Below, in pieces: positions 1,594 to 23,182 of a stretch of DNA of 64,000 nucleotides (positions are counted from its first letter, which is position 1; each line of letters opens with the position of its first letter). The DNA is taken from the NCBI GenBank assembly GCA_964447805.1, contig CAYUTQ010000004.1:10429-74428 (forward strand), given 5' to 3'. Both the position numbers and the translations under genes were made by a program. A model generated the notes under the pieces. That model did no database searches. It saw only the letters and a program-made list of their open reading frames with translations, and was not told where the DNA came from. The stretch is from an uncultured Clostridia bacterium. Its GTDB lineage: Bacteria; Bacillota; Clostridia; Tissierellales; DATGTQ01.

Positions 1594-3933
1594 ATGAAAA
1601 ATGAAATTAAAATATCTGTTAGAAATTTAATAGAGTTTGTTTTAAGGACTGGAGATATAGATACAACTTTTATAAGCAACAGTAGAGCAGTAGAAGGTAC
1701 TAAAGCCCATAGAAAAATTCAAAATTCTTATGGGGAAAATTATCAATCAGAAGTTGCTTTAAAACATAGTTTTTCTTATGAAGGATTTTCAATAACCATT
1801 GAAGGTAGAGCTGATGGTATTTTAATAGAAAATGAAAAAAATATTATTGATGAAATAAAATCTACTACTAAGGATTTAGACACTATAGAAGAAGATTATA
1901 ATGAACTTCATTGGGCACAAGGAAAATGTTATGGTTATATTTATTGTATAGAAAAAGATTTAGAAGAAATAGATGTTCAATTGACTTATTATGAGTTAGA
2001 TTCACAGGATACAAAAATTTTTAGAAAGAATTTTTCTAAAAGTGAGTTAGAAAAATTTTATTATGATTTAATTGATAAATATTTGATATGGGTTGACTAT
2101 ATTTTAAATTGGAATAAAATAAGAGATTTATCAATAGAAAAAATGGATTTTCCCTTTGAAAGTTATAGAAAAGGTCAAAGAGAAATGTCCATTGCTGTTT
2201 ATAAAACTATTCTTCATGAGAAGAACTTATTTGTACAAGCTCCAACAGGAATAGGGAAAACTGTTTCTGTTCTTTTTCCAACTATTAAATCTATAAGAGA
2301 AGGTTTAGCTTCCAAGATTTTTTATTTGACGGCTAAAACTATTACGAGACAAGCAGCATTAAATTGCGTATATGATATGAGAAATCAAGGCTTAAGGTTA
2401 AAGTCTATGGTTATAACGGCAAAAGAAAAAATTTGCTTAAATGAAGAAGTAGATTGTAATCCAGAGAAGTGTCCTTATGCAAAAGGACATTTTGATAGAG
2501 TAAATCAAGCTGTATTAGATGTGCTTCAAAATAAAGATACAATAACTAGAGAAACAATAGAATATTATGCTACAAAATATAAAGTTTGTCCTTTTGAATT
2601 GTCATTAGATATTAGCATTTTTGCTGATTTAATTATATGTGATTATAATTATGTCTTTGATCCTAGAGTATCTTTGAAGAGATTTTTTGAAGAAAATAAT
2701 GAGGACTATGTCTTTCTTATTGACGAAGCACATAATTTAGTAGATAGGGCAAGAGGTATGTATTCAGCAGAGTTGACAAAAGAACCAATTTTAGAATATA
2801 GAAAGTATTTTAAAGAAAAAAATACAAAGTTATATAGAAGTTTTAATAAAATAAATTCCTTTTTTTTAAAAGCAAAAAAATGGTGTAATGAAGAAGGTGT
2901 TTATGTAAGTAAAAATGAAATAGAAGAATTTTATCCTCTAATTAGAAAAGCTTCAAAAAACTTGGAAGAATGGCTTTTAGAAAATAAAAAAGATCCGGAA
3001 TATAGAGAGATATTAAATATGTATTTTGAACTTTTAGGTTATTTAAGAATAGCAGAATATTATAATGAAACTTATGTAACTTATATAGAACATGATTTAA
3101 AAGATGTGAAGATCAAGCTATTCTGCCTTGATCCTTCCATTGTATTAGGAGAAGTTTTGAAAAATGCAAGAGGATCTATATTTTTTTCGGGAACTCTTAC
3201 ACCTTTAGATTATTTCAAAGAAATTTTAGGTGGAAATAAAAAGGATTACACAATGAGACTTTCTTCTCCATTTGATAGAGAAAATTTATGTTTGTTAATA
3301 ACTAATGAGATATCTACAAGATATAGGGATAGACCCAAGAGTTATCCACAAATAGTTAAGTATATTGAGAAAATTGTTGAAAAGAAACAAGGAAATTATT
3401 TTGTGTTTTTTCCTTCTTATAAATATATGATGGAGGTTTATGAAATATTTAAGGAGCAGAATACTAATTATAATACTATAATTCAAGAATTTTTTATGGA
3501 TGAGAAATCTAGAGAAAAATTTATTAAAAGCTTTGAAGAGAAGGATAATTTAATAGGTTTTGCAGTATTAGGTGGAATATTTTCAGAAGGAATAGACTTA
3601 ATTGGGGACAATCTTATTGGTGCCATAATTGTAGGAGTAGGACTTCCACAATTATGTTTTGAGAGAAATATTATTATGGATTATTTTAAAGAAAAAAATG
3701 GCTTTGGCTACCAATATGCTTACATGTATCCAGGTATGAATAAGGTATTGCAAGCTGCTGGTAGAGTAATAAGAACTGAGGAAGACAAAGGTATTATATT
3801 ATTGATTGATGATAGATTTTTATCTTATAGATATTTAAGACTATTTCCTAAGGAATGGAAAGGTTTTGAGAGAGTAAGTAGTGTGGAAGTATTGGGAAGA
3901 AGTTTAGATAAATTTTGGGAGAGAAAGTTTTGA
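1594..3933 (+). CDS. PD-(D/E)XK nuclease domain fused to an XPD/DinG (Rad3-type, Fe-S) superfamily 2 DNA helicase
   Basis: The N-terminus has EGRADGIL...IIDEIKS...QGKCYGYIY, a D..(D/E)xK plus QxxxY nuclease motif set. It is followed by Walker A APTGIGKT, a four-Cys cluster (CLNEEVDCNPEKCPYAKGH...CPFE), DEAH box (IDEAHNL) and a helicase C-terminal block (QAAGRVIR). Confidence 0.75.
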   Translation: MKNEIKISVRNLIEFVLRTGDIDTTFISNSRAVEGTKAHRKIQNSYGENYQSEVALKHSFSYEGFSITIEGRADGILIENEKNIIDEIKSTTKDLDTIEEDYNELHWAQGKCYGYIYCIEKDLEEIDVQLTYYELDSQDTKIFRKNFSKSELEKFYYDLIDKYLIWVDYILNWNKIRDLSIEKMDFPFESYRKGQREMSIAVYKTILHEKNLFVQAPTGIGKTVSVLFPTIKSIREGLASKIFYLTAKTITRQAALNCVYDMRNQGLRLKSMVITAKEKICLNEEVDCNPEKCPYAKGHFDRVNQAVLDVLQNKDTITRETIEYYATKYKVCPFELSLDISIFADLIICDYNYVFDPRVSLKRFFEENNEDYVFLIDEAHNLVDRARGMYSAELTKEPILEYRKYFKEKNTKLYRSFNKINSFFLKAKKWCNEEGVYVSKNEIEEFYPLIRKASKNLEEWLLENKKDPEYREILNMYFELLGYLRIAEYYNETYVTYIEHDLKDVKIKLFCLDPSIVLGEVLKNARGSIFFSGTLTPLDYFKEILGGNKKDYTMRLSSPFDRENLCLLITNEISTRYRDRPKSYPQIVKYIEKIVEKKQGNYFVFFPSYKYMMEVYEIFKEQNTNYNTIIQEFFMDEKSREKFIKSFEEKDNLIGFAVLGGIFSEGIDLIGDNLIGAIIVGVGLPQLCFERNIIMDYFKEKNGFGYQYAYMYPGMNKVLQAAGRVIRTEEDKGIILLIDDRFLSYRYLRLFPKEWKGFERVSSVEVLGRSLDKFWERKF

Positions 3934-4060
3934 TTGTATTTTTGAGGAATTAATATGGTAAGAATTAAAAACAATATAAATATTCAGAAAATAATGCAAA
4001 TGATACCATATATTTCATAGATATATGGTATCATTTATATTGACATGGTTTTTAAAGAAT

Positions 4061-4164
4061 ATATTATTTCTACTATAGTTCTATTAAAATAATAAAGCAC
4101 AAACAACAATTTATATTCCAATTTACATTCCATATTTACATTCCATAGAATTTGGTTCTATTAT
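4061..4164 (-). CRISPR. Degenerate, inverted mini-CRISPR: two repeat-like units flanking a short spacer-like segment (candidate CreR/CreA-like RNA gene)
   Basis: The minus strand reads ATAATAGAACCAAATTCTATGGAATGTAAAT / ATGGAATGTAAAT / TGGAATATAAAT / TGTTGTTTGTGCTTTATTA / TTTTAATAGAACTATAGTAGAAATAATAT. Both outer units share long blocks with the array repeat CTTTTAATAGAACTACAGTAGAATGTAAAT. Confidence 0.6.
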
Positions 4165-4172
4165 ATCAATAC

Positions 4173-4181
4173 ATTATAGCA
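4173..4181 (-). promoter_or_regulatory. Extended -10 element (TGcTATAAT on minus strand) positioned to transcribe the mini-CRISPR
   Basis: The reverse complement of 4173-4181 is TGCTATAAT, about 8 nt upstream of the first repeat-like unit. The -35 (TTCATT) is weak. Confidence 0.35.
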
Positions 4182-4215
4182 TAGATAATCAATGAAATGA
4201 ATTGGTAAAAGGTGG

Positions 4216-4244
4216 TTGATAAGAGAAAAAAAGTATATTATTAT
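4216..4244 (+). promoter_or_regulatory. Candidate sigma-A promoter of the cas operon (TTGATA-17 bp-TATTAT)
   Basis: TTGATA at 4216-4221 and TATTAT at 4239-4244 with 17-bp spacing, 67 nt upstream of the cas6 ATG. Confidence 0.4.
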
Positions 4245-4310
4245 TTACTTATACACAAACAACATGGCAGAAAACTAAAATTATATAATTTTATGAAAAG
4301 GGGTGAAAAT

Positions 4311-5036
4311 ATGAGATTTAATGTGGAATTATTATTAGAAAATGAAACTATTCCTAAAGATAAAAATAGGATAATTTTATCTTTGATAAAACATAATTTT
4401 AATTCCTACGATAAAGATTATTATTCAAAATTGTATGAAGAAATTCCAAACAAAATGAAAAGTTTTACTTTTGCATTATATATGGGAAATTGTAAATTTT
4501 TAAGGGAAGAAATAGTTATTCCAGAAAAAAAGATAATTTTAAATTTCTCTACTTATGATATAAGGGAAGGAATTGTATTTTACAATGGTTTCTTAAAGAA
4601 TAAAGGATTAGAATATCCAATTAAAAATAATTCTATAAAAGTAAATAGGATAAATTTAAACAGAGAAAAAGTTGTAAAAGGGAATGAAGCAATATATACA
4701 ACTCTTAGTCCTATATCTGTTAGGGAACATTGTGGGGATAATAAAAAAACTTGGTATCATTCATTAAGTAATGTGGATGGACAAGAAGTGTTTATGAGAA
4801 ATTTAAAATATCAATTAAAAGATGAATTTGGAGAAAATAGGATATTAGATATAGAAGAAATAGAATTTGAAGTTTTAGAGAACAAAGAAGTAAAGGTAAA
4901 AAATTATGATATTGAGGTTTTGTCTAATATATGCCATTTAAGAATTAAAGGAAAACCGTATATATTGGATTATCTTTATAAAGCAGGAATAGGAAGTCAA
5001 AGGAGTACAGGCTTTGGAATGGTAGATTTGGTATAG
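4311..5036 (+). CDS. cas6: CRISPR endoribonuclease Cas6 (type I-B)
   Basis: The ATG at 4311 follows AAAGGGGTGA RBS. The C-terminal glycine-rich loop GIGSQRSTGFGMV is typical of Cas6, and this is the first gene of a canonical I-B operon. The ORF-track start at 4212 would overlap the promoter and lacks an RBS. Confidence 0.85.
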   Translation: MRFNVELLLENETIPKDKNRIILSLIKHNFNSYDKDYYSKLYEEIPNKMKSFTFALYMGNCKFLREEIVIPEKKIILNFSTYDIREGIVFYNGFLKNKGLEYPIKNNSIKVNRINLNREKVVKGNEAIYTTLSPISVREHCGDNKKTWYHSLSNVDGQEVFMRNLKYQLKDEFGENRILDIEEIEFEVLENKEVKVKNYDIEVLSNICHLRIKGKPYILDYLYKAGIGSQRSTGFGMVDLV

Positions 5037-5047
5037 GAGGTGAAAAT

Positions 5048-6740
5048 GTGGAAGAGAGAATAAAAATATATTTATCTGATTGGCAATTTAATGCTGGAAT
5101 AGTGGGGCTTTATAATATATTAGAATATGCAGAAGAAGAGGTAACTGTCGGGGATCAATATATAGAAATTGATTTGGAAGTGTTGGAAAATTTTGAGGAA
5201 AAATATTTTAATTACTTTATAGAAAAGTATAAAGAAACTACACCATGGCATAGAATAATATCTTATGAACCAATAATGGAAAGTTATGAAGAGCATAATT
5301 TTGAAAACTTTAATAAAAAAGCTTTAGATTACTTAAATGATTATATAAGGATGGTAAAAGCTTATTTATCTAGAAACAATTATAAGAAAGTATATCCATT
5401 TATAAATAGTGACAAAGATATATTGGCTTTAGAAAGAGAATTAAATACTATTCGTGTTAAGAAAAATGACAAAATAGAAGAAAAGATAGATGATGTAAGA
5501 AGCAGATTTGAAATAATACGTGAGATAATAGATTATTGTAATAGTGAAGATGGAAAGAAATATATAGCGGCAAAGGGGGTTATTTATAATATTATAAATA
5601 ATGGTTGGAATGGTGTATGTTTTCTAAACCAACAAACTAAAGAATACGATGTGTATGAGGATTATAAAAAATATTTTGTTGATACAACCATAGATTATTT
5701 AAAATTAGATAAAGAAAAATTCAAACACAATTGTTTTATTTGTGATAGAAAAATGAAGAATACAGATAATGATTTGAGTTTTTTAAATAAAACAGGATTT
5801 GACGTCAATAAAAAGCCATCACATATTTGGTATTTTACAAATGATGTGGCAATATGTGATTTATGTAAATTTGTATATTCATGTTTACCAGCGGGTTTTG
5901 TATATGCGTATGATAAAGGAATTTTTATAAATAGCAATACATCTGTTGAGGATTTGTTAAAAGCAAATAGGAAACTTAGAGATGATGTACTTAAAAAAGA
6001 TGATGATGTTTATAAATCATTAACATATAGAGCATTAGTGAAGGCTATAAATGAGCAGCATAGTTCTAAAATACAATATGAATTGCAGGATATACAAATA
6101 GTAAGGTATGAAAATGAAAGGTATAGATTTAATATTTTATCAAAAGAAGTTTTGAAGGTAATTAGAGCATCAAAACAGGAACTTAATAGCTTGATGAATA
6201 CTGGTTATAGGGAAGTAAGAAATTATTTTAATATATATGATATTACTATTGATAGACTTTTAAATAATTACAACATGTTTACATTAATTCATAAATTATT
6301 GATGTATAAAATTACTAAATCTCAATCAATAGTTACTTATTATCATATGGGACATATTATGAATTTAATTTTAATAAATGTAAATTATTTGAAAGGGGTG
6401 GAAGATGTGGATAAGGCAAGAGAAAATAAGGAATTAGTGAGAAAAGCCAGAGCATATGGTTATTATTTAAGACAAGAATATCTTGAAAAAGATCGAGATG
6501 CAGATAAAAACAAGATAAGAGGGGTGTCCTATAGATTATTGAATGCACTTAAAACAAGAAATGCGGAAATGTTTATGCACAATATAATCACAAGTTATAT
6601 GTATGTAGGGAAGACAATACCATCTAAAATGACAATGGTATTAGAAAGTGAAGAGGCTTTAGGAAATTTAGGTTATGCTTTTGTTACAGGGTTAAATGGT
6701 GGGAAATATAAACAGGAAAATGAGAATGGAGGAGAAAAGA

Positions 6741-6751
<11 letters not shown>
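5048..6751 (+). CDS. cas8b: Cas8b/Cst1 large subunit (type I-B)
   Basis: 567 aa in the position between cas6 and cas7. It has the CxxC...CxxC zinc-finger pair (CFICDRK...CDLCKFVYSC) usual in Cst1/Cas8b. GTG start after GGAGGTG RBS. Confidence 0.8.
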
Positions 6752-8536
<1,785 letters not shown>

Positions 8537-8538
<2 letters not shown>

Positions 8539-8563
8539 GGCCCTATTTTAATAGGGCTTTATA
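8537..8563 (+). terminator. Stem-loop between cas5 and cas3 (possible attenuator/partial terminator)
   Basis: GCCCTAT-TTTA-ATAGGGC is a 7-bp stem, extendable by wobble/AU pairs. It is followed by only a short T tract (TTTAT). Confidence 0.3.
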
Positions 8564-8584
8564 ATAGTAGAGGGGGATTTGTGT

Positions 8585-10873
8585 ATGAGTGAGAATGAAT
8601 ATATAGCTAAAACTTATCCTGAAGTAGAAACTATTCAGCAACATACTAATAGATTAATAGAAAACTATAATATTTTAAAAAGGATATATCCAGATTTAAA
8701 GGTAGATTGGGATATATTAGAATTGGCTTGTCTTTATCATGATTTAGGGAAGATGAATAAAAAATTCCAAAAAAAATTAGAGGGGAAGAAAGTAGAAGGT
8801 GAAATTCCTCATGGCTTTTTAAGTATTGGATTTTTGGATATTAAAGAATTACGAAAAAAGTATTCAAGGGAGCAAATAAAAGTATTAGTAAATGCAATAG
8901 CTTATCATCATGAAAGAGATTTTAGATTTTCAGAATATGATGGAAAAGTTGCAGAAGAGATAGAAGAAATGAAAAGAGAAGTAGAAAATTTTGATTATGA
9001 CAAAATACCAAATTGTAAGGTGTTTAGATTACCTAGTGCTAGGTATATTGATGGTAGTAGAGTTACAGAAGAAGATGGAGAAGATGTTTTTTATGATTAT
9101 ATACTAGTAAAGGGACTTTTAAATAGAATAGATTATGCATCAAGTGCATATGAAAAAGTGGAACGAGAAAATGATTTTTTAGAAGAAGCATTGGATAATA
9201 TGATGAGGAACTGGAGAAAAGAAAATGAAAATATATCTTGGAATGATTTACAGAAATATATGATACAAAATAGAGATGAAAATGTAATAGTTGTTGCTCA
9301 GACAGGGATGGGGAAAACAGAAGCAGGGCTTTTGTGGATAGGGGATAATAAAGGATTTTTCACATTACCTTTAAAAACAGCAATCAATTCGATATATGAT
9401 AGGGTGAGAATAGGTATAGTTAAAGATAAAATTGGAGAAAGAGTAGGATTGCTTCATTCTGATGCTTTTAGTGAATATATAAAAAGAGAAGATGACAAAA
9501 AAGACAAATTAGAGTTAGAGGAAATAGGGTTAAGTCAATATTATGGAAGAACAAAACAACTGACTATGCCTCTTACAATATGTACTATAGATCAATTATT
9601 TGATTTTATATATAGATATAAAGGTTTTGAGCTAAAACTTGCAACCTTAGCTTATTCAAAAATAATTATAGATGAAATTCAAATGTATTCATCTGATTTA
9701 ATTGCATATCTAGTGTCAGGACTTTTGCATATTACAAAATTAGGAGGAAAATTTGCTATATTAACAGCGACATTTCCACCTTTTATAGGAGATTTATTAG
9801 AAAAAGAAGGGGTAGAATTTGGAAAACCAGAACCTTTTATAGATGAAGATGAAAATAAAATAAGGCATAGTATAAAAGTGAATGATGAAATGATAAATGC
9901 AGATTTTATAATAGAAAAGTATAATAAAAATAAAGTATTGGTGATTTGTAATACAGTGAAGAAAGGGCAAGAATTATATGAAGAAATAAAAGAAAAAAGA
10001 TCAGATTTAGAGGGAAACATTAATTTGTTTCATAGTAATTTTATAAAGAAAGATAGAAGAGATAAAGAAAAAGCAATTCTTGAATTGGGAAAAAAAGATA
10101 ATAAAAAAAATCATGGAATTTGGATATGTACTCAAGTTGCAGAGGCGTCATTAGATATAGATTTTGATGTATTGATAACAGAACTGTCAGATTTAAATGG
10201 GCTATTTCAAAGAATGGGTAGATGTTATAGGAATAGGTCTTTTAATAAAGAGGGATATAATTGCTATGTATTTAATGGTGGAGAAGAAGAATGCACAGGA
10301 GTAGGCTATGTAATAGATAAAGATATATTTAAATTTTCTAAAGAAGCATTAAAAAATATAGATGGGAAAATAAGTGAAGAAGAAAAAATAGAGCTTATAA
10401 ATAATGTATATACAACAGAAAAATTAGAAAAAACTAAATATTATAAAGAAGTTATTAATACATTAAAATATATTGAGAGTTTATATACAAATGAAATGGA
10501 CAAGTCTCAGGCTAAAAAGATGTTTAGAAATATAAATTCAATAACAGTAATTCCAGAAGAAGTATTTAAAAAGAATAGGGATGAAATAGAAAAATGTAAA
10601 GAAATTATAAATGAAAAAAGAAATAAGGATATGACAGAGAAAGAATTAGAAGAGTTTAAAGTTAGGAAAGCTAAAGCAAGATCAAAACTTACGGATTATA
10701 CAGTATCTATACCTTTTTATTTAGTAAATAACAAAAATACACAATATTTTGAAATAAATAAATATGAAAATATTACAATATTTAAATGTAATTATGATAA
10801 GGAACAAGGTTTAACTCCCATAAAAGATTTAGTCGAAGAAAAAGAAAAAGGAAATTGGAATAATATTGTATAA
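8585..10873 (+). CDS. cas3: Cas3 HD nuclease-helicase
   Basis: HD motifs (LYHDLGK, AYHHERD), Walker A AQTGMGKTEA and DExx box IIIDEIQ. ATG at 8585 after AGGGGGA RBS. Confidence 0.9.
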   Translation: MSENEYIAKTYPEVETIQQHTNRLIENYNILKRIYPDLKVDWDILELACLYHDLGKMNKKFQKKLEGKKVEGEIPHGFLSIGFLDIKELRKKYSREQIKVLVNAIAYHHERDFRFSEYDGKVAEEIEEMKREVENFDYDKIPNCKVFRLPSARYIDGSRVTEEDGEDVFYDYILVKGLLNRIDYASSAYEKVERENDFLEEALDNMMRNWRKENENISWNDLQKYMIQNRDENVIVVAQTGMGKTEAGLLWIGDNKGFFTLPLKTAINSIYDRVRIGIVKDKIGERVGLLHSDAFSEYIKREDDKKDKLELEEIGLSQYYGRTKQLTMPLTICTIDQLFDFIYRYKGFELKLATLAYSKIIIDEIQMYSSDLIAYLVSGLLHITKLGGKFAILTATFPPFIGDLLEKEGVEFGKPEPFIDEDENKIRHSIKVNDEMINADFIIEKYNKNKVLVICNTVKKGQELYEEIKEKRSDLEGNINLFHSNFIKKDRRDKEKAILELGKKDNKKNHGIWICTQVAEASLDIDFDVLITELSDLNGLFQRMGRCYRNRSFNKEGYNCYVFNGGEEECTGVGYVIDKDIFKFSKEALKNIDGKISEEEKIELINNVYTTEKLEKTKYYKEVINTLKYIESLYTNEMDKSQAKKMFRNINSITVIPEEVFKKNRDEIEKCKEIINEKRNKDMTEKELEEFKVRKAKARSKLTDYTVSIPFYLVNNKNTQYFEINKYENITIFKCNYDKEQGLTPIKDLVEEKEKGNWNNIV

Positions 10874-10886
10874 AGTGAGTGATACC

Positions 10887-11378
10887 ATGAAGAAGGTAAC
10901 AGGTGTTATGATATATTATTATTTTGTTTGTAAGAGGAAATTGTGGTTATTTTCAAATAATTTAAATATGGAATCTAATAGTCAATTGGTTGGTATAGGA
11001 AAGTTAGTAGATGAAACATCTTATAGTAGGGAAAGAAAACATATATTAATAGATGAAAGTGTAAATATTGATTTTTTAAAGGATTGGAAAATTGTACATG
11101 AAATAAAAAAATCCAGAAAAATGGATGAAGCATCAAAATGGCAATTAAAATATTATATATGGGTTCTCAAAAATAAAGGAGTAGAAATTGAAAAGGGGAT
11201 ATTAGATTATCCCCTTTTAAGAAAGAGAGAAGAAATATTTTTGAAAGAAAAAGATGAAGAAGAATTAAAAAAGATTATAGAAGATATAAAAAGAATAGTA
11301 TCTTCAGAGCTTCCTTCAGATGTTTTGAATAAAGGTATTTGTAAAAAATGTGCTTATTATGAATTTTGCTATATTTAA
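10887..11378 (+). CDS. cas4: Cas4 RecB-like exonuclease (DUF83)
   Basis: An N-terminal Cys (YYFVCKRKLW) plus a C-terminal CKKCAYYEFC Fe-S cluster ligand pattern, in the position between cas3 and cas1. An alternative start at 10866 is possible. Confidence 0.85.
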   Translation: MKKVTGVMIYYYFVCKRKLWLFSNNLNMESNSQLVGIGKLVDETSYSRERKHILIDESVNIDFLKDWKIVHEIKKSRKMDEASKWQLKYYIWVLKNKGVEIEKGILDYPLLRKREEIFLKEKDEEELKKIIEDIKRIVSSELPSDVLNKGICKKCAYYEFCYI

Positions 11379-11390
11379 AGGAGCGAAAAA

Positions 11391-12383
11391 ATGGGTGAAA
11401 CTTTCTATATTTTTAAGGATGGAAATTTGAAAAGGAAAGATAATAATGTGATTATTAAAGGATTAGATGGTCAATACAAGAATCTTAAAGCAGAAGTAAC
11501 TGATGAAATATACCTTTTTGGTGAAATTAGTATGAATACTAAATTACTTAATTTTTTGTCTCAGAAAGATATAACAATGCATGTATTTAATTATTATGGA
11601 TTTTATAGTGGTAGTTTTTATCCTCGGGAATCTAATATTAGTGGATATTTGCTAGTTCAACAAGTAAGATGTTATGACAATATAGGAAAAAGATTAGAGT
11701 TGGCAAAAGAGATATTGAAAACTGCTTTTTATAATATATATAGAAATTTGAGATATTACAATGGAAGAGGAATTGAGTTAAATGAGCCTATGAGAGAAAT
11801 TCAAAGTCTTAGCAATAGGTTGGATTATGGCAATAGTATAAATGAAATCATGGGAGTAGAAGGGAATATTAGGAAAATATATTATTCTACATGGAATGAC
11901 ATAATCAAACAAGATATAAATTTTAAAAAGAGAGTGAAAAGGCCACCAGATAACATGATTAATTCACTAATTTCATTTGTCAATAGTTTGATATACACAA
12001 CTGTGTTAAGTGAAATATATAAAACTCAATTAAATCCTACAATAAGCTATTTACATGAACCTGGAACTAAAAGATTTTCTTTATGTTTAGATATAGCAGA
12101 AATATTTAAGCCTTTAATTGGGGATCGAATGATATTTTCTATGTTAAATAAGAATCAAATTACAGAAGAAGATTTTGAAAGGGAATCAAATTTTTTATAT
12201 ATAAAAGAATTGGGGAAAAAGAAAATTTTGATGGAATATGATACAAGACTTGCCCAAACAATTTATCATAAAGAATTAAAGAGAGATGTATCTTATAGAT
12301 ATTTAATTAGGCTAGAATGCTATAAGTTAATAAAAGATATTATTGGAGAGAAGAAATATGAAGGGTTTAAGATTTGGTGGTGA
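11391..12383 (+). CDS. cas1: Cas1 integrase
   Basis: 330 aa, with the size and position typical of I-B Cas1 and conserved acidic/His-containing C-terminal half. GGAG RBS. Confidence 0.9.
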   Translation: MGETFYIFKDGNLKRKDNNVIIKGLDGQYKNLKAEVTDEIYLFGEISMNTKLLNFLSQKDITMHVFNYYGFYSGSFYPRESNISGYLLVQQVRCYDNIGKRLELAKEILKTAFYNIYRNLRYYNGRGIELNEPMREIQSLSNRLDYGNSINEIMGVEGNIRKIYYSTWNDIIKQDINFKKRVKRPPDNMINSLISFVNSLIYTTVLSEIYKTQLNPTISYLHEPGTKRFSLCLDIAEIFKPLIGDRMIFSMLNKNQITEEDFERESNFLYIKELGKKKILMEYDTRLAQTIYHKELKRDVSYRYLIRLECYKLIKDIIGEKKYEGFKIWW

Positions 12384-12391
12384 TAGGATTT

Positions 12392-12670
12392 ATGTATGTA
12401 ATATTGATGTACGATATTGTTACAGATGAAAAAGGACCTAAAGTTGCAAGAAATACTTTTAAGACATGTAAAAAATATCTAACTCATATACAAAAATCCG
12501 TGTTTGAGGGTAATTTGACAGAATTAGATTTAATGAAATTAGAGGCAGAATTAGATGATTACATTAGAAAAGATAGGGATTCTCTTATTATATTTAAAAG
12601 TAGAAGTGAAAAATGGTTGGAAAAAGAATTTTGTGGAATAGAAGATGATAAGACATCCAATTTTTTTTAA
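12392..12670 (+). CDS. cas2: Cas2
   Basis: Starts MYVILMYDI, the classic Cas2 N-terminal beta strand with catalytic Asp. About 92 aa, immediately after cas1. Confidence 0.85.
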   Translation: MYVILMYDIVTDEKGPKVARNTFKTCKKYLTHIQKSVFEGNLTELDLMKLEAELDDYIRKDRDSLIIFKSRSEKWLEKEFCGIEDDKTSNFF

Positions 12671-12854: not shown

Positions 12855-15800
12855 CTTTTAATAGAACTACAGTAGAATGTAAATTTTTTTGTTCCCCCTC
12901 TTTTTTAATTGTTCATTTCCCTTTTAATAGAACTACAGTAGAATGTAAATTTTGCTCTTTTAGATGACTGAATCATGTTGTGAAGTTCCTTTTAATAGAA
13001 CTACAGTAGAATGTAAATAAAATAAATCATAAAAAAGATAAACACGACCTTCCTCACCTTTTAATAGAACTACAGTAGAATGTAAATGAGGTTATGGAGT
13101 ATTGCCAAAAATGGCAATGCTAGCTTTTAATAGAACTACAGTAGAATGTAAATTTAATTTTAATGTCGTTTTTGTTTGCTACTATGTCACTTTTAATAGA
13201 ACTACAGTAGAATGTAAATGTCTTTATTTTTTCTATAGAGCTTCTTGAGTAGTTCCCTTTTAATAGAACTACAGTAGAATGTAAATCTAATAAAGATATA
13301 GTTATGTTTTTTACTCTTTTTTCCTTTTAATAGAACTACAGTAGAATGTAAATAAAAATCCATCAACTTTTAGTTTCTTATTAAATTGTCTTTTAATAGA
13401 ACTACAGTAGAATGTAAATGCATCAGGGGAAAGACCTATTAACTTTAAATTTGTTGCTTTTAATAGAACTACAGTAGAATGTAAATTTCTTCTAGTTCTT
13501 TATCTCCCCATTTTTTGGCTATCTTTTAATAGAACTACAGTAGAATGTAAATACGGTTGACTTGTTTGCAGACAAAATAGAAGTAACACTTTTAATAGAA
13601 CTACAGTAGAATGTAAATTTTTTACTAATGCATTTGAGTTACCTCTTTGACAAACTTTTAATAGAACTACAGTAGAATGTAAATTAGACAAAAAAACACC
13701 TATCATCAATCCTAATATACCTTTTAATAGAACTACAGTAGAATGTAAATTACCAGGTTAAAGGCGGCAGAAAAGTTAGATATTAAAACTTTTAATAGAA
13801 CTACAGTAGAATGTAAATCAGACGTTAGGTACGACGAGGATTTACCTGCAAACTTTTAATAGAACTACAGTAGAATGTAAATCCCCCTTTTTGAACAACT
13901 TGTACATTGTGCAAGTCTCCTTTTAATAGAACTACAGTAGAATGTAAATAGGTCTTCAACAATTCTTCTTATTTCTTCCTTGTAAACTTTTAATAGAACT
14001 ACAGTAGAATGTAAATGTTGCCATCCTTCTTTGGCAACTACGGAAATGTACTTCTTTTAATAGAACTACAGTAGAATGTAAATGATAGAAGGCCATATTT
14101 TCCTGTACCTTTCCTAGGACTTTTAATAGAACTACAGTAGAATGTAAATAATGGAACAGTAGACATTGACAAAGTACAAACAAAACTTTTAATAGAACTA
14201 CAGTAGAATGTAAATTATTATTAATAGTAGGATCTTTATCAGGTGCAATACTTTTAATAGAACTACAGTAGAATGTAAATATTAGTCAACGAAAGTGGCT
14301 GGAAGATGTATATAATTCTTTTAATAGAACTACAGTAGAATGTAAATGTTAATTGGAGAGATAGATGGCCTGAATATTACAAACTTTTAATAGAACTACA
14401 GTAGAATGTAAATTTACAAAAGGGGAGCTATGGCAGGGAAAGTTTTGTTACTTTTAATAGAACTACAGTAGAATGTAAATACCCTCCTGTCCCGCCTTAC
14501 TGCTTCTTGTAGCACTCTTTTAATAGAACTACAGTAGAATGTAAATTTCATCATATTCCACATATTCAGCATCCAGTGAAAATCTTTTAATAGAACTACA
14601 GTAGAATGTAAATTTCCAAATAGCCTTAAATGCAGTTTTTGCTGCTGACTTTTAATAGAACTACAGTAGAATGTAAATGTGAAAATTTATATCTGGCATC
14701 ATGTTGCTTTGTGTCTTTTAATAGAACTACAGTAGAATGTAAATCTAAATTGTCCTCTAAATGCATTTCCGCTGTAAACCTTTTAATAGAACTACAGTAG
14801 AATGTAAATTTAAGTGATGAGTTGGATTTAGCATTACTAGAGAAACTTTTAATAGAACTACAGTAGAATGTAAATATTTCTAACCCCATACTTAATAGCA
14901 CCATCTTCAAACTTTTAATAGAACTACAGTAGAATGTAAATTTCCAAACCCTAGTTGTTACTGACTTAATTGCATTAACTTTTAATAGAACTACAGTAGA
15001 ATGTAAATAAACAAAGATTACCTTTATCACATATTAAAGCTAGTCTTTTAATAGAACTACAGTAGAATGTAAATATATGTCCCTTTGATACCATACAGAA
15101 TCGGGATCGTACTCTTTTAATAGAACTACAGTAGAATGTAAATTAAGTACTTTAATTTTATACAATATGTCGTAAGCTTCTTTTAATAGAACTACAGTAG
15201 AATGTAAATACTCAAATCTAACCCTAACTGCTTTTGTGCTGGAAATACTTTTAATAGAACTACAGTAGAATGTAAATGTAATTATGTTGTACCACGTTAC
15301 TAATAGGAATATTGCTTTTAATAGAACTACAGTAGAATGTAAATTTTGTACTTTTTAGGATACTCTTTTTTAAAGTGCTTTCTTTTAATAGAACTACAGT
15401 AGAATGTAAATTGTAGTTGTATATACAATAGATATATCGTCCCTAATCTTTTAATAGAACTACAGTAGAATGTAAATTTTCTTCTGCTTCAAGCTCTTTA
15501 TTATCAGCATCTACCTTTTAATAGAACTACAGTAGAATGTAAATAATTTATAAATAGCTTGTTGTGCATATTTAAAGTCTTCTTTTAATAGAACTACAGT
15601 AGAATGTAAATTATGTAAGGATGTGGTAAAGTGTTTTATGATAAAGACTTTTAATAGAACTACAGTAGAATGTAAATGAATGGAAAAAAGAAGTAATGAA
15701 AAATGTCAATAAGCTTTTAATAGAACTACAGTAGAATGTAAATTCAGGAAAAGGAATTCACATTATATGCAAAGGATCTCCTTTTAATAGAACTACAGTA

Positions 15801-18800
15801 GAATGTAAATCCTAAATATCTAACATAAGACAAGCTTTATCCCATACTTTTAATAGAACTACAGTAGAATGTAAATTTAAGTGTTGAATTCCTTTCCATA
15901 TGCTTGAAAAAACTTTTAATAGAACTACAGTAGAATGTAAATTTAGTTGAATTGTCGGATAGGGAAATAACATTGTCATACTTTTAATAGAACTACAGTA
16001 GAATGTAAATTTAAATGAAAATGCTTGGCATGCAGGAGATGGAAGACTTTTAATAGAACTACAGTAGAATGTAAATTATATTGAAAATGCTAGATGAGTA
16101 TGCCAAGGCTAACTTTTAATAGAACTACAGTAGAATGTAAATTTTCCTGATGGACTGTATTCTGCATAACTTTCTAGACTTTTAATAGAACTACAGTAGA
16201 ATGTAAATTTTCCATAGCAGAAGAATACACACTCTTCCTTTGTAGACTTTTAATAGAACTACAGTAGAATGTAAATCAAAAATCAACGTATCTAAGCCCA
16301 CTACTACTAATACTTTTAATAGAACTACAGTAGAATGTAAATGAGATTATACCGATTGAGGTAGAGGGGAATTTACAAGCTTTTAATAGAACTACAGTAG
16401 AATGTAAATAGCTTTCAAATACACTGATACTAAAATAATAACTCCCTTTTAATAGAACTACAGTAGAATGTAAATTTAACCGTCCCTGGTAATAGGCCCA
16501 GCCTGGTTTATCTTTTAATAGAACTACAGTAGAATGTAAATTAAAGTAAACCAGCACTTTCAGACCTATTTCCCATTCTTTTAATAGAACTACAGTAGAA
16601 TGTAAATCCATTTCAAAGTATCAATTGTTTGGTCCTTTAATTCCCTTTTAATAGAACTACAGTAGAATGTAAATTATGAAAGCAATAAAATGATTCTCAT
16701 CACCTTCTCCCTTTTAATAGAACTACAGTAGAATGTAAATCCTTCTCACCCTCCTTTGTGGTCGAACTATTATTCTCTTTTAATAGAACTACAGTAGAAT
16801 GTAAATAGGGCATGTGATAATTCTTATAAGCTCCTGCCCCTACTTTTAATAGAACTACAGTAGAATGTAAATTAGTTTTTCCGTCAGCATTCCCTATTGC
16901 GTTCGCTACCTTTTAATAGAACTACAGTAGAATGTAAATTTAAAATTAGAGAAGAATAAAAAATTTGTGTTGAAACTTTTAATAGAACTACAGTAGAATG
17001 TAAATGAATTTAATAATAAAAAATGGACTGTTGGCTTATCCCTTTTAATAGAACTACAGTAGAATGTAAATTAATTTAAATTCTGGTTTAAATTCAAACT
17101 CCTTGCCACTTTTAATAGAACTACAGTAGAATGTAAATATGGTAAAGACACTTAATTATTCTCTTGAGGATATGCTTTTAATAGAACTACAGTAGAATGT
17201 AAATCATACTCTTATGTCGTTCAACCAATTGAAGCCAGCCATCTTTTAATAGAACTACAGTAGAATGTAAATGAGATTATTCCAATTCGTTGGACAGGAA
17301 TACAAACACTTTTAATAGAACTACAGTAGAATGTAAATTCTGATAATTTCTTATAGTGACTTATTACGTCTCCCCCTTTTAATAGAACTACAGTAGAATG
17401 TAAATGATGATACAGCGAAGAATATCAACTGGATTATTACTCTTTTAATAGAACTACAGTAGAATGTAAATTATGAAAGTTGGAAAGAAGGATTATTTAA
17501 AGCTTATTCTTTTAATAGAACTACAGTAGAATGTAAATTAAAATAATGATACGCTCTTGCCTATACTCTCCAGGCTTTTAATAGAACTACAGTAGAATGT
17601 AAATAAGGAAATAAAAATGCAATAGGCAATAATGGTGGAGCTTTTAATAGAACTACAGTAGAATGTAAATGAAATAGCTGCACTTCCTATAAAGAGCACT
17701 ATGAAACTTTTAATAGAACTACAGTAGAATGTAAATTGGGTAAATGATGTAGAAACAGAACTTAGAAAACTTCTTTTAATAGAACTACAGTAGAATGTAA
17801 ATGCAGTTCATAAGGCCATGAAGCTATCAAAAGATATAGCTTTTAATAGAACTACAGTAGAATGTAAATGATACTAAACTGGACATTGCTAGGACCATTC
17901 TTGCTACCTTTTAATAGAACTACAGTAGAATGTAAATATGATTTAATTCTTTTATCTAGTGCATTGTTTATATACTTTTAATAGAACTACAGTAGAATGT
18001 AAATGAGGATAACCCACGAATACAAGCACTCCTGGATAACTTTTAATAGAACTACAGTAGAATGTAAATTTTTGCTGCCTCATCTGCTATAACTTCCTTG
18101 TGTTCCTTTTAATAGAACTACAGTAGAATGTAAATCACTTACAACGTAATAGAACTTTCTTTTTATAACTAACTTTTAATAGAACTACAGTAGAATGTAA
18201 ATCTCATATAACTGTTTTGTAGGTTTCTGAATACGTTCACTTTTAATAGAACTACAGTAGAATGTAAATGTATTAAAAAGACTAATAGAAATATTTACAG
18301 ATGAGCTTTTAATAGAACTACAGTAGAATGTAAATGTCCCATCATGTCTGCATTAGCAAGGCTCATATACCCCTTTTAATAGAACTACAGTAGAATGTAA
18401 ATATTTATGAATTCGTTTTACCAGCCTTAAATGCATTAACTTTTAATAGAACTACAGTAGAATGTAAATAAGAATTATGGGCAGCCAAAACGGTTATAGC
18501 ATCACTTTTAATAGAACTACAGTAGAATGTAAATCAATATTATTTTACATGTTTTAACCTTAGTAGAAAGCTTTTAATAGAACTACAGTAGAATGTAAAT
18601 CAGCCTGGAGAAGATTTTACAGTAGGTGGTACTGTTGCTTTTAATAGAACTACAGTAGAATGTAAATAAGTCTAATAAAGTTTGGAAATGGGGTATGGGT
18701 GGACTTTTAATAGAACTACAGTAGAATGTAAATAAATAAAGCGAAGGAAAGATTGAAAGATTTTCAAAACTTTTAATAGAACTACAGTAGAATGTAAATG

Positions 18801-21800
18801 GATCTAGGTCATATGATGGAGTTTCACTTGCGAGTCTTTTAATAGAACTACAGTAGAATGTAAATTTTTTTATCCTAAGCCTTCTATTTAGTCTGTATTA
18901 AGCTTTTAATAGAACTACAGTAGAATGTAAATATAGAAATAAAATTCACACAAAAATGGATTAAGCTAACCTTTTAATAGAACTACAGTAGAATGTAAAT
19001 AAGTATATCCAAATATTCTAGGATCTAATATATACCATCTTTTAATAGAACTACAGTAGAATGTAAATCATAGATGGAGGGCAGTATCTTCACATCCAGG
19101 TCATCTTTTAATAGAACTACAGTAGAATGTAAATATACACATCTTAATATCAATATACTAAAAGCTATAACTTTTAATAGAACTACAGTAGAATGTAAAT
19201 TGGAGTTGCGGTGGAGCCTTTTTCGAGTTTAGGTGACTTTTAATAGAACTACAGTAGAATGTAAATTACTCTATCAAGTTCTTTAACTTTTTCTTTATAT
19301 GTCTTTTAATAGAACTACAGTAGAATGTAAATTAAGAAATATAAAATCAAATATACTGGGCATAACAGCTTTTAATAGAACTACAGTAGAATGTAAATGC
19401 ATCTTCAACCAATGCCATGACATCAGAAATATCTCTTTTAATAGAACTACAGTAGAATGTAAATATACAGTAACAAAATCATAACAAAATATTGGGAAGA
19501 CTTTTAATAGAACTACAGTAGAATGTAAATTGATGTCGGCCATTTCTTTTGTTTTTCCAGATGAATCTTTTAATAGAACTACAGTAGAATGTAAATAAAA
19601 TTGCTAGAAAAGCATGGTAAAAAAGATAATGACTTTTAATAGAACTACAGTAGAATGTAAATGGATGATATAGATAAGAGTATTGATAAGATTGAGGTCT
19701 TTTAATAGAACTACAGTAGAATGTAAATCTTGATGAAGTATTAGTTGACTTAAGAGGATCTTTCGCTTTTAATAGAACTACAGTAGAATGTAAATACTAC
19801 TAGAGAAAAATTAAACGATACTACTATAAACCTTTTAATAGAACTACAGTAGAATGTAAATTATTTTCTTAGCTGTTTTATCACTTGTTCCAGCTAACTT
19901 TTAATAGAACTACAGTAGAATGTAAATTTGAGTGGACAATCTCCTAACAATACAGGAGGTTCTCTTTTAATAGAACTACAGTAGAATGTAAATTGGATAA
20001 CATGATTAAATTGGACAGGTCTTATTCTCACTTTTAATAGAACTACAGTAGAATGTAAATAATGGCATAGATGGGCATGGTGTAGGTTGGTGTAAAACTT
20101 TTAATAGAACTACAGTAGAATGTAAATGACTCAGCAGAACAGGTATTGATTAGAGGATTAAACTTTTAATAGAACTACAGTAGAATGTAAATAAATTCGA
20201 CTGTATCACAGGAGGATTTCCTTGCCAACTTTTAATAGAACTACAGTAGAATGTAAATATCCACTCCTCATCTTTTATATCTCCTCTTCTTAATCTTTTA
20301 ATAGAACTACAGTAGAATGTAAATTATAAACGACATGCCCAAAATAGCGATTCCAGTTAAGCTTTTAATAGAACTACAGTAGAATGTAAATTATTATCCT
20401 ATCCTCTTTTTCAAATTGCTCATATAACTTTTAATAGAACTACAGTAGAATGTAAATTTAGAAGTCATAAGTAAAAGAATAAAGAAACTGCATAACTTTT
20501 AATAGAACTACAGTAGAATGTAAATTAAACGGGGAGTTTGAAGAAGAACATACCCGCTGGACTTTTAATAGAACTACAGTAGAATGTAAATAGCTATCCA
20601 TTTAGGTTGGATAACAGAAACAGCGTTCTTTTAATAGAACTACAGTAGAATGTAAATAGTTCTCGAACGGTCGGGAAAGTACATCTTGGGGAGCTTTTAA
20701 TAGAACTACAGTAGAATGTAAATTATTAATGCAGGCGGAGGAACTGGTGCAGAGGTTTTACTTTTAATAGAACTACAGTAGAATGTAAATTTTTTATACA
20801 TTAGTTCATAGATGTAATTATATTTAACTTTTAATAGAACTACAGTAGAATGTAAATGTAATTGTAAAGCTTCGTTCTGTGTAAGGAAATTCACTTTTAA
20901 TAGAACTACAGTAGAATGTAAATTAATAGGACCTAATATTCTTCCTACTTTAACTCCATCTTTTAATAGAACTACAGTAGAATGTAAATATATAATCTAA
21001 AATTCCTTTTGTTACAGCTTCTGCAACCTTTTAATAGAACTACAGTAGAATGTAAATAAGGCGGATTATGTTGATAGGATACTCAAGAATAAACTTTTAA
21101 TAGAACTACAGTAGAATGTAAATGTAGTACCTTAGGGAGTGATTAAATGAAAGCGGAGGCTTTTAATAGAACTACAGTAGAATGTAAATAAAGTTAAACT
21201 GTGGATTATAATAAAGCCTTCTTCCCTTTTAATAGAACTACAGTAGAATGTAAATCTTAATTCATCATACTTACTAAAGTCATAAGGAACACCCTTTTAA
21301 TAGAACTACAGTAGAATGTAAATAAAGTTTTATTTGCTGAAGCTGTCACTGCTTCACATACTTTTAATAGAACTACAGTAGAATGTAAATACTGTTGTCT
21401 TGCCACTAAAAGTAGTTCCTTCCATAACTTTTAATAGAACTACAGTAGAATGTAAATTGAGTATGACTCCATTTCTCCAATATGATTAACACAACTTTTA
21501 ATAGAACTACAGTAGAATGTAAATTTTTATGGTGATATGAATTTGAAAAAACGAGAACAAACTTTTAATAGAACTACAGTAGAATGTAAATGTCATTAAT
21601 CTTCTAATCCAGCCTTCTGTATCCATCTTTTAATAGAACTACAGTAGAATGTAAATACTAGAATATGATAAATAAACTTCATCTGTAGGTACCTTTTAAT
21701 AGAACTACAGTAGAATGTAAATCCTAATGCACAAGCATATTCTACTTGTGTTCTAATACTTTTAATAGAACTACAGTAGAATGTAAATATTTTGTTTTTC

Positions 21801-23182
21801 TGCTGTTACATTTTCCAATGATTTACTTTTAATAGAACTACAGTAGAATGTAAATTTGCCTGCTTGTCATCGGGATTGATTTTTACTTTCCCTTTTAATA
21901 GAACTACAGTAGAATGTAAATTATATAGGCGGAAAATCATCAGCAGGGCATGGAAAACTTTTAATAGAACTACAGTAGAATGTAAATATATCTGGATCAT
22001 CTGATAAGGGTTGCGATACAAACTTTTAATAGAACTACAGTAGAATGTAAATGTGACTTGTATAGTTATTATACCCAACCGAATCAACCTTTTAATAGAA
22101 CTACAGTAGAATGTAAATAAAGCTGTCTCTAAACTTTCAAATCTGTCTTCAACTCTTTTAATAGAACTACAGTAGAATGTAAATAAGCAAGATGGATTAA
22201 AGGCTTACAAAGAATCTTTGCTTTTAATAGAACTACAGTAGAATGTAAATCCTTAAATCATTGTACTTCTTCATCTGTGCTTGGGTTCTTTTAATAGAAC
22301 TACAGTAGAATGTAAATACGGGTAAGACTACATTAGTGAATATTTTAAGAGACTTTTAATAGAACTACAGTAGAATGTAAATTATCTCTATATTTCTGTT
22401 TTTCATCTTCTGTAATTTTATCTTTTAATAGAACTACAGTAGAATGTAAATTTAGGTTTGTTGCTGCGTTCAACATTTTAGGTATGACTTTTAATAGAAC
22501 TACAGTAGAATGTAAATTAGTTCTCCCACATGATTTACAAGTTTTTTGCATAACTTTTAATAGAACTACAGTAGAATGTAAATATATCTTCAAGGCTGTT
22601 ATTGATAGCATTTTCTAATCTTTTAATAGAACTACAGTAGAATGTAAATTTCTCTTTTTAATATTCTTCATACTAACTTCTCTTACTTTTAATAGAACTA
22701 CAGTAGAATGTAAATTCATTTTTTACAAACTTTAGTATATTTTTTTCTTTGTCTTTTAATAGAACTACAGTAGAATGTAAATTGAGGTTAGAACGCTTAG
22801 TGAGAAATTTATATTCTTCCTTTTAATAGAACTACAGTAGAATGTAAATAAAAACAACCAATATGCGATACCGTGTCTTTTGTTTTCTTTTAATAGAACT
22901 ACAGTAGAATGTAAATATCAAAAAGATAAAGAAAGCATTAGGATTTGACTTTAGCTTTTAATAGAACTACAGTAGAATGTAAATGAAGGAAGGGGAGCCT
23001 TATATATTTGAAGATGGTAGCTTTTAATAGAACTACAGTAGAATGTAAATGCCTATATTGCGACTACAATAGAATCTCGTGGTGAACTTTTAATAGAACT
23101 ACAGTAGAATATAAATAATTATAATCACCATTCAAAATATATTTAGATATACCTTGTAATAGAACTATCCTAATATGCAGAG
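12855..23182 (+). CRISPR. CRISPR array: 155 conserved 30-bp repeats plus 1 decayed terminal repeat, spacers about 34-39 bp
   Basis: The repeat is CTTTTAATAGAACTACAGTAGAATGTAAAT. I located every repeat start from 12855 to 23087. Repeat 155 (23087-23116) carries one G>A change (..AATATAAAT). The terminal copy at 23153-23182 is CTTGTAATAGAACTATCCTAATATGCAGAG. Confidence 0.97.

Follow-up and report, generated by a model that had tools for sequence, protein, structure and literature searches.

Cascade-guided repression of promoters has been demonstrated for the CreA RNA of type I-B clustered regularly interspaced short palindromic repeat (CRISPR)-Cas systems, for the CreR RNAs of types I-E and V-A, and for mini-arrays of type I-F1. 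In type I-B the mechanism of CreA and CreR was established by Cheng et al. (2021, PMC8501985) and Liu et al. (2023, 10.1101/2023.03.10.532045), and mutagenesis of CreA showed that guide positions 1-5 and 7-11 are required and that positions 6 and 12 are tolerant (Cheng et al., 2021). Type I-B mini-arrays that lie upstream of cas6 and target the cas6 upstream region next to a I-B protospacer adjacent motif (PAM) were described by Shmakov et al. (2023, 10.1101/2023.03.03.530964), who noted their shorter spacers and mismatches at every sixth position. Here we describe an element of this kind, located just upstream of the cas operon in a 64 kb stretch of DNA (hereafter the window) from an uncultured Tissierellales-like bacterium. 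Judged from its sequence, it is likely to be a Cas-regulating CRISPR RNA (crRNA)-like gene, i.e., a CreR-type regulatory mini-array of the type I-B system of this organism.

The element most closely resembles the I-B mini-arrays of Clostridium perfringens and Fusobacterium reported by Shmakov et al. (2023). It belongs to the same subtype, lies upstream of cas6, has a PAM-flanked target in between, carries a short spacer and tolerates mismatches at sixth positions. It differs from them in lineage, in repeat family and in a tripled handle unit; in IMG/VR no copy of it turned up on a phage. Those cases and this one alike rest on prediction (10.1101/2023.03.03.530964). A preliminary description of this DNA implied that the element was novel, but the class, the layout and the position 6/12 rule had already been published between 2021 and 2023 (10.1101/2023.03.03.530964, PMC8501985). 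New to the described class are the lineage and the repeat family, neither of which is named in those papers (the supplementary tables of Shmakov et al. stand outside this comparison).

The haloarchaeal I-B CreA and CreR of Haloarcula hispanica and Halobacterium hubeiense (Li 2021, Cheng 2021, Liu 2023) share the arrangement of two degenerate repeats around a spacer-like segment (psiR1-psiS-psiR2), an 8-nucleotide (nt) 5' handle with a 3' handle of approximately 22 nt, and PAM-adjacent pairing limited to positions 1-5 and 7-11. There, Cascade represses promoters without cleavage and senses both crRNA load and anti-CRISPR proteins; by analogy, the window element may do the same. The haloarchaeal element has cas6 and cas8 on either side, is directed at Pcas8 and PcreT (archaeal promoters with a B recognition element and TATA box), relies on a TTC PAM and is paired with an RNA toxin. 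In contrast, the window element is upstream of cas6, faces a bacterial sigma-A type promoter with a CCA PAM, has no toxin and, by the same analogy, would control the whole operon including cas6. The I-F1 mini-array of Pseudomonas aeruginosa YL84 and the I-E and V-A CreR RNAs also have a short spacer and mismatches at positions 6 and 12, and their repression of the Cascade operon promoter was validated with reporters; they differ in subtype, PAM and Cas6 enzyme, and are placed between cas3 and cas8. More distant is tracr-L of the Streptococcus pyogenes II-A system, likewise a natural guide that represses its own cas promoter via an 11-bp match, but one that works with Cas9 in a single-guide-like form and involves neither Cascade nor a 6-nt periodicity.

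The window element is a divergent degenerate mini-array on the minus strand (4164-4061), approximately 150 nt upstream of cas6 (Table 1). The parts of the element named in the preliminary description were all found again on the minus strand, with the positions and sequences given there. The 11-nt guide seed, TGTTGTTTGTG, occurs exactly twice in the 64 kb, at 4108-4098 within the mini-array and at 4264-4254 ahead of cas6, both on the minus strand, where 0.04 occurrences are expected by chance. The second copy is directly preceded by CCA (4267-4265), as had been claimed. Guide and target agree at 15 of 19 positions, 11 of them contiguous. When position 6 is left free, CCN followed by the seed is found at one site in the window (0.00 expected). 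Of the seed permutations tried on the 180 nt that separate the mini-array from cas6, 0.35% have a CCN-flanked match with one mismatch or none. The guide carries minus-strand sequence and therefore pairs with the plus (non-template) strand. The target covers approximately +1 to +14 of the predicted cas transcript, or approximately +1 to +17 with the PAM. A four-codon open reading frame (ORF), ATGGCAGAAAACTAA, at 4264-4278 on the plus strand overlaps the PAM and seed; it lacks a Shine-Dalgarno sequence and is probably meaningless.

Related loci were gathered with a Cas6 profile (69 from genomes and 62 from metagenomes) and scanned on the strand opposite cas6 with a strict pattern consisting of the handle-like GAATGTAAAT, 14-32 nt, and then TTTAATAGAAC. 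Among the 76 loci with Cas6 of at least 44% identity and at least 300 nt of upstream sequence, 29 have such a mini-array, and the non-redundant set, window included, contains 27. These share a TATAAT-like box upstream, a psiR1 whose 3' end is preserved, a short spacer (17-30 nt) and, often, a terminator. For each locus, the first 11 spacer nucleotides were compared with the region between mini-array and cas6, with no PAM demanded. A same-strand target with at most two mismatches is present in 26 of the 27, and every one of these is preceded by CC (CCA in 21, CCT in four and CCC in one). Under a strict rule, CCN with exact agreement at positions 1-5 and 7-11, 25 of the 27 cognate pairs match, whereas 0.23 loci are expected from permuted seeds. 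Nineteen classes of seed can be distinguished, and none of the 666 comparisons between a seed and a locus of another class gives a match.

The distribution of mismatches along the guide is the most informative finding. At guide positions 1-5 and 7-11 there is one mismatch in 260 comparisons; at position 6 there are 13 in 26, at position 12 there are 18 in 26 and at position 18 there are 14 in 24, and pairing decays gradually beyond position 13. Type I Cascade flips out every sixth crRNA base. Thus, the profile points to selection for Cascade-type pairing and not to shared ancestry of two duplicated segments. In one relative (L075) the guide agrees with that of the window over its first 18 nt; this locus has one handle copy and a spacer of 25 nt, and its target departs from the guide within the seed at position 6 only. 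The preliminary description had named, as a finding that would speak against it, relatives whose repeat-like units show neither conservation nor co-variation of the seed match; the opposite is seen. In five loci (L013, L079, L080, L082 and L083) the guide pairs over 18-22 positions, nearly the whole short spacer, with mismatches only at position 6, position 18 or the very end. This suggests that the shortness of the guide, and not only its mismatches, prevents self-cleavage. A same-strand mini-array whose spacer has the full length of 32 nt lies on the plus strand upstream of cas6 in two further loci (L023, approximately 3260-3340, and L031, approximately 860-940), in the form GAATGTAAAT, 32 nt, (T/C)TTAATAGAAC.

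The repeats of the mini-array have degenerated in a way that is consistent with retained handles. In the window, psiR2 differs from the 30-nt array repeat by six mismatches, all but one of which are in the last 7 nt; it agrees with 23 of the first 24 nt and decays after that. The psiR2 units of all related loci likewise keep approximately 22 nt and lose the last 7-8 nt. At the other end of the guide, the 8-nt 5'-handle sequence AT(G/A)TAAAT abuts the window spacer. The TAGAA/TTCTA hairpin previously noted in psiR1 is present but is specific to this locus; the feature found across the family is instead a CCA-N(4-10)-TGG stem. The stem is CCA..TGG in 17 loci, CTA..TAG in four and ACA..TGT in one, and CTA..TAG in the array repeat; these compensatory changes fit a retained Cas6 site. 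A TATAAT-like hexamer occurs at the same place 5' of psiR1 in 26 of the 27 loci (exactly TATAAT in 12), although the high AT-rich background makes the -10 of the mini-array weak as sole evidence. A search of 3800-4400 against Rfam matched no family.

The PAM of the system can be read from its own array. A protospacer in MZ417522.1 (L132, 6600-6636) matches spacer 72 (17605-17640) perfectly over 36 nt and has CCA at its 5' flank, and spacer 23 has near-matches with 3-6 mismatches in terminase genes of phiCT9441A and of ten IMG/VR contigs, flanked by CCA in seven cases and CCG in four. These flanks agree with the CCN of all 26 promoter targets and with the PAM determined experimentally for the I-B system of Clostridioides difficile, CCW/YCN (PMC4556805, PMC8406132). 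They bear out the CCA PAM of the preliminary description, which had called for this check against array spacers. An IMG/VR relative of the spacer 72 target (L151, 4870-4898) has the same protospacer with CAA in place of CCA, a possible case of PAM escape. MZ417522.1 is labeled 'UNVERIFIED: Mycolicibacterium phage J1', is 24.9 kb long and is filed under Microviridae; the host label looks implausible because the spacer comes from a Tissierellales-like genome with 28% G+C. A match to Funu2 was rejected as a protospacer because of five mismatches, including one at position 1, and a GCA flank. The three leader-proximal spacers, with every sixth base wild-carded, had no viral match, and no usable match to cultured phages came from the second half of the array. 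Within the window, the array spacers have only weak partial matches that lack seed or PAM, and these were rejected as self-targets.

The target lies just downstream of a candidate cas promoter, TTGATA-17-TATTAT, and before cas6, as originally reported, with a 9-nt gap between the -10 and the guide match. This promoter and that of the mini-array are back to back. A TTGACA-17-TAnnnT homologue with the same 17-nt spacing adjoins the target in every related locus in which the distance to cas6 is short. In the 14 loci that have the target near cas6 and downstream of the promoter, TTGA(C/T)A-17-TAnnnT lies upstream with a spacing of exactly 17 nt, and the distance from the end of the -10 to guide position 11 is 5-23 nt. 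The window has this layout. In L013 the target is 28 nt downstream of the -10. Four loci have an alternative layout, with the PAM 3-9 nt upstream of the -35.

Taken together, the features that define CreR and can be recognized in sequence are all present: layout, handles, seed pairing, use of the PAM of the system itself, limited complementarity and co-variation of guide and target. The cognate targets in 25 of 27 loci, the diversity of seed classes, the confinement of mismatches to positions 6, 12 and 18 and the CCA flanks of array protospacers support the reading, first put forward in the preliminary description, that the element probably autoregulates cas expression in the manner of CreR. 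We propose that a transcript of approximately 130-170 nt would run from near 4166 to the terminator. Cas6 would cut in psiR1 and psiR2, leaving an RNA with the 8-nt AT(G/A)TAAAT 5' handle, a guide of 18-19 nt and a 3' handle of approximately 22 nt. This RNA would load into a shortened Cascade, with approximately three fewer Cas7 subunits, that recognizes CCA and pairs with the plus strand at 4254-4264. The resulting R-loop, of 11 bp or possibly somewhat more, would be too short to license Cas3. Cascade bound across approximately +1 to +17 would occlude RNA polymerase, blocking the whole cas operon. The effect would be negative feedback, with a strength set by the amount of Cas protein that remains free. 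The mini-array RNA and the crRNAs of the 154-spacer array would be rivals for Cas proteins; repression would be relieved when these crRNAs, or anti-CRISPR proteins, draw the Cas proteins off.

Several observations weigh against this interpretation. Transcription and Cas6 processing of the element rest on a predicted -10 and a predicted terminator, with a tripled handle that makes the cut site uncertain. Two of the 27 loci lack a clean target (L022 has none and the target of L006 has two mismatches). Promoter-like sites are abundant in such AT-rich DNA (12 found versus 4.8 expected); therefore, the assignment of the cas promoter rests on the comparative alignment and not on the motif scan. A better-scoring plus-strand site, TTGACA-16-TATTAT at 4040-4067, could drive cas6 as well. 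The seed comes after the third handle copy, whereas the conserved CCA..TGG stem and its normal loop are next to the first. Cleavage by Cas6 might therefore fall 25 nt upstream of the seed, giving an RNA whose seed misses the promoter. Folding does not settle the cut site, as repeat and psiR fold energies cannot be told apart from those of shuffled sequences and the hairpins are energetically negligible.

Of all sites in the region, TTGACA-16-TATTAT scores highest as a sigma-70-like promoter (11 of 12). Overlapping psiR2 but on the other strand, the site points through the mini-array toward cas6; it is absent from relatives. It could give rise to antisense transcription of the mini-array and to read-through that a bound Cascade would also block.

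Three tandem copies of the TGG+handle unit occur in the window only. Over 4060-4313 the window has 100% identity to an independent Logan assembly of run DRR027590; the tripled handle is thus not an artefact of one assembly. When the guide is read in the registers that follow the first, second and third copies, a PAM-flanked target is found for the third-copy register only. The registers after copies one and two have no CCN-flanked target, and their only match is the DNA of the element itself, preceded by TCT. Cutting at the third copy would yield an RNA that begins ATATAAAT-TGTTG. Several outcomes are conceivable for the tripled-handle RNA: cleavage at every one of the three sites, less efficient production, or impairment.

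One alternative is that the window holds a disabled or weakened copy of the family element, in which the triplication shifts the Cas6 cut off the seed, so that the promoter-matching guide is scarce or missing and the cas genes are mostly free of repression. The triplication is absent from the other 26 mini-arrays, only its first copy adjoins the conserved stem with a normal loop, and a spacer of 18-19 nt is at the short end of the family range of 17-30. Against this, nothing has been lost from the seed (11 of 11), PAM, promoter, -10 or terminator, which argues against long-standing decay. Each extra copy also retains the full cut-site context, TGGA|AT(G/A)TAAAT, and the array repeat is essentially unstructured, making sequence-based cutting at each copy plausible. 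In addition, the G-to-A variant GAATATAAAT in the third copy (4109-4118) also occurs in the terminal repeat of the array (23087-23116). On balance we consider a disabled or weakened copy unlikely. A more speculative idea, which we regard as distinctly improbable, is that the tripled cassette is itself functional and not the product of neutral slippage. It would provide three Cas6 cut sites or Cas5 handle registers, only the last of which matches the promoter, and thereby a leakier set-point or a Cas6/Cas5 sponge in a genome with an unusually large crRNA pool, of 154 spacers, to load. If so, handle copy number would be a new way to tune CRISPR autoregulation.

A second alternative is that the RNA is the CreA antitoxin of a CreTA addiction module and chiefly represses a toxin gene, not the cas operon. 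Eight relatives (L001, L002, L006, L013, L015, L018, L050 and L087) lend this some weight. In these, the target is 170-270 nt from cas6 and is followed by a strong ribosome-binding site (GGAGGTG), a tiny hydrophobic ORF of 11-29 codons, a hairpin terminator and then cas6, which starts at 4001 in the coordinates of L001-L050 and at 1501 in those of L087. The predicted peptides, among them MYFYLLIFILINKITISLYIDVFL in L006, MYFLLLFTLIRKVTISLYIGLSL in L015 and MYSLIVYFLALLFTLLPKVKAYLYIDISL in L087, share the motif K-x-x-I-S-L-Y-I-D. On sequence grounds, the arrangement resembles a guard of CreTA type whose candidate toxin is a small membrane peptide. In the window, by comparison, only 43 nt separate the PAM from the cas6 ATG, with no ribosome-binding site or ORF other than those of cas6, and the cas operon is all that the targeted promoter would transcribe. 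There is no toxin gene under this promoter; therefore, the arrangement is a direct one of CreR type, and an antitoxin role in the window is very improbable.

Two other explanations are also very improbable. The guide might act chiefly on genes elsewhere, in the manner of the trans-acting scaRNA, with the cas promoter as a secondary site; seed-only pairing of 10-11 nt could find more targets in a genome of which the search covered 64 kb, but the only CCN-plus-seed site in the window is the cas promoter, and in relatives the cognate site is always before cas6 or an adjacent small ORF. Equally, arrays flank I-B loci commonly, and both repeats here are degenerate and the spacer half the normal length, as in a decayed second divergent array or an old self-targeting spacer with a coincidental promoter match; this is already contradicted by the comparative data, given a chance match of 0.04 per 64 kb (0.0035 in the intergenic region with PAM), the architecture, strand, short spacer and cognate PAM-flanked target kept in 25 of 27 loci, and guide-target co-variation with mismatches on a 6-nt periodicity. 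Divergence between the two repeats, and of both from the array repeat, led us to reject a canonical second CRISPR array, as did a spacer that has 18-19 nt instead of 34-39 nt and matches the cas promoter of the host. Also rejected was a viral anti-CRISPR mini-array (Cracr), since the element sits between a chromosomal helicase gene and cas6. A scan of IMG/VR with handle plus seed for phage mimics returned 15 matches, none of which has psiR1 or psiR2 flanks; these are therefore chance matches.

The CreR-type mini-array and the promoter that it probably targets are housed in the 377 bp between the helicase gene and cas6. The window, which has a G+C content of 28%, encodes a complete type I-B cas locus on the plus strand. 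The large array consists of 155 repeats and hence 154 spacers, not the 155 spacers originally counted. Homologues of Cas6 place the locus among Tissierellales-like Bacillota, and the closest named relatives, 85% identical, are from Anaerosalibacter massiliensis ND1 and a Clostridiaceae metagenome-assembled genome.

Table 1. Coordinates of the mini-array, its target and the surrounding type I-B locus in the 64 kb window.
Feature	Position	Strand	Basis or remark
Mini-array promoter, extended -10 TGcTATAAT	4181-4173	-	direct reading; predicted start near 4166
psiR1, ATAATAGAACCAAATTCTATGGAATGTAAAT, degenerate repeat	4164-4134	-	CCA..TGG stem; intact 3' end GAATGTAAAT (source of 5' handle)
Second copy of repeat 3' end (TGG+handle unit), ATGGAATGTAAAT	4133-4121	-
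Third copy of TGG+handle unit, TGGAATATAAAT	4120-4109	-	adjoins spacer
psiS, spacer-like guide, TGTTGTTTGTGCTTTATT(A)	4108-4090	-	18-19 nt; seed is positions 1-11
psiR2, TTTTAATAGAACTATAGTAGAAATAATAT	4089-4061	-	first ~22 nt of repeat retained (3' handle and Cas6 site); last 7 nt decayed
Mini-array terminator, 17-bp hairpin and U-tract	3997..4037	-	prediction; bidirectional with helicase gene
Candidate cas operon promoter, TTGATA (4216-4221) and TATTAT (4239-4244)	4216..4244	+	motif scan and comparison with relatives
Target (protospacer)	4246..4264	-	positions 1-11 (4264-4254) pair exactly; 14, 16, 18 and 19 also match
PAM, 5'-CCA	4267-4265	-
Regulated (predicted) operon cas6-cas8b-cas7-cas5-cas3-cas4-cas1-cas2, type I-B	4311..12670	+	intact
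cas6	4311-5036	+	ATG at 4311
cas8b	5048-6751	+
cas7	6696-7622	+
cas5	7609-8538	+
cas3	8579-10873	+
cas4	10866-11378	+
cas1	11391-12383	+
cas2	12374-12670	+
CRISPR array, 155 copies of CTTTTAATAGAACTACAGTAGAATGTAAAT	12855..23116	+	154 spacers of 34-39 nt each
Rad3/DinG-type helicase gene	1594-3933		upstream neighbour, chromosomal

In summary, autoregulation of Cascade by a degenerate mini-CRISPR probably extends to an uncultured Tissierellales-like lineage. The loci provide, from sequence comparison, an evolutionary read-out of the pairing rule, in which positions 1-5 and 7-11 pair, positions 6, 12 and 18 are free and the PAM is CCN. For annotation, the seemingly empty region of approximately 370 bp before cas6 in such loci is worth scanning for mini-arrays. 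For those who use the I-B system, deletion or mutation of the element should raise Cas expression. Relatives that have either the cas operon or a tiny hydrophobic ORF under the same guide may form a natural series for the interconversion of CreTA guards and CreR autoregulators.

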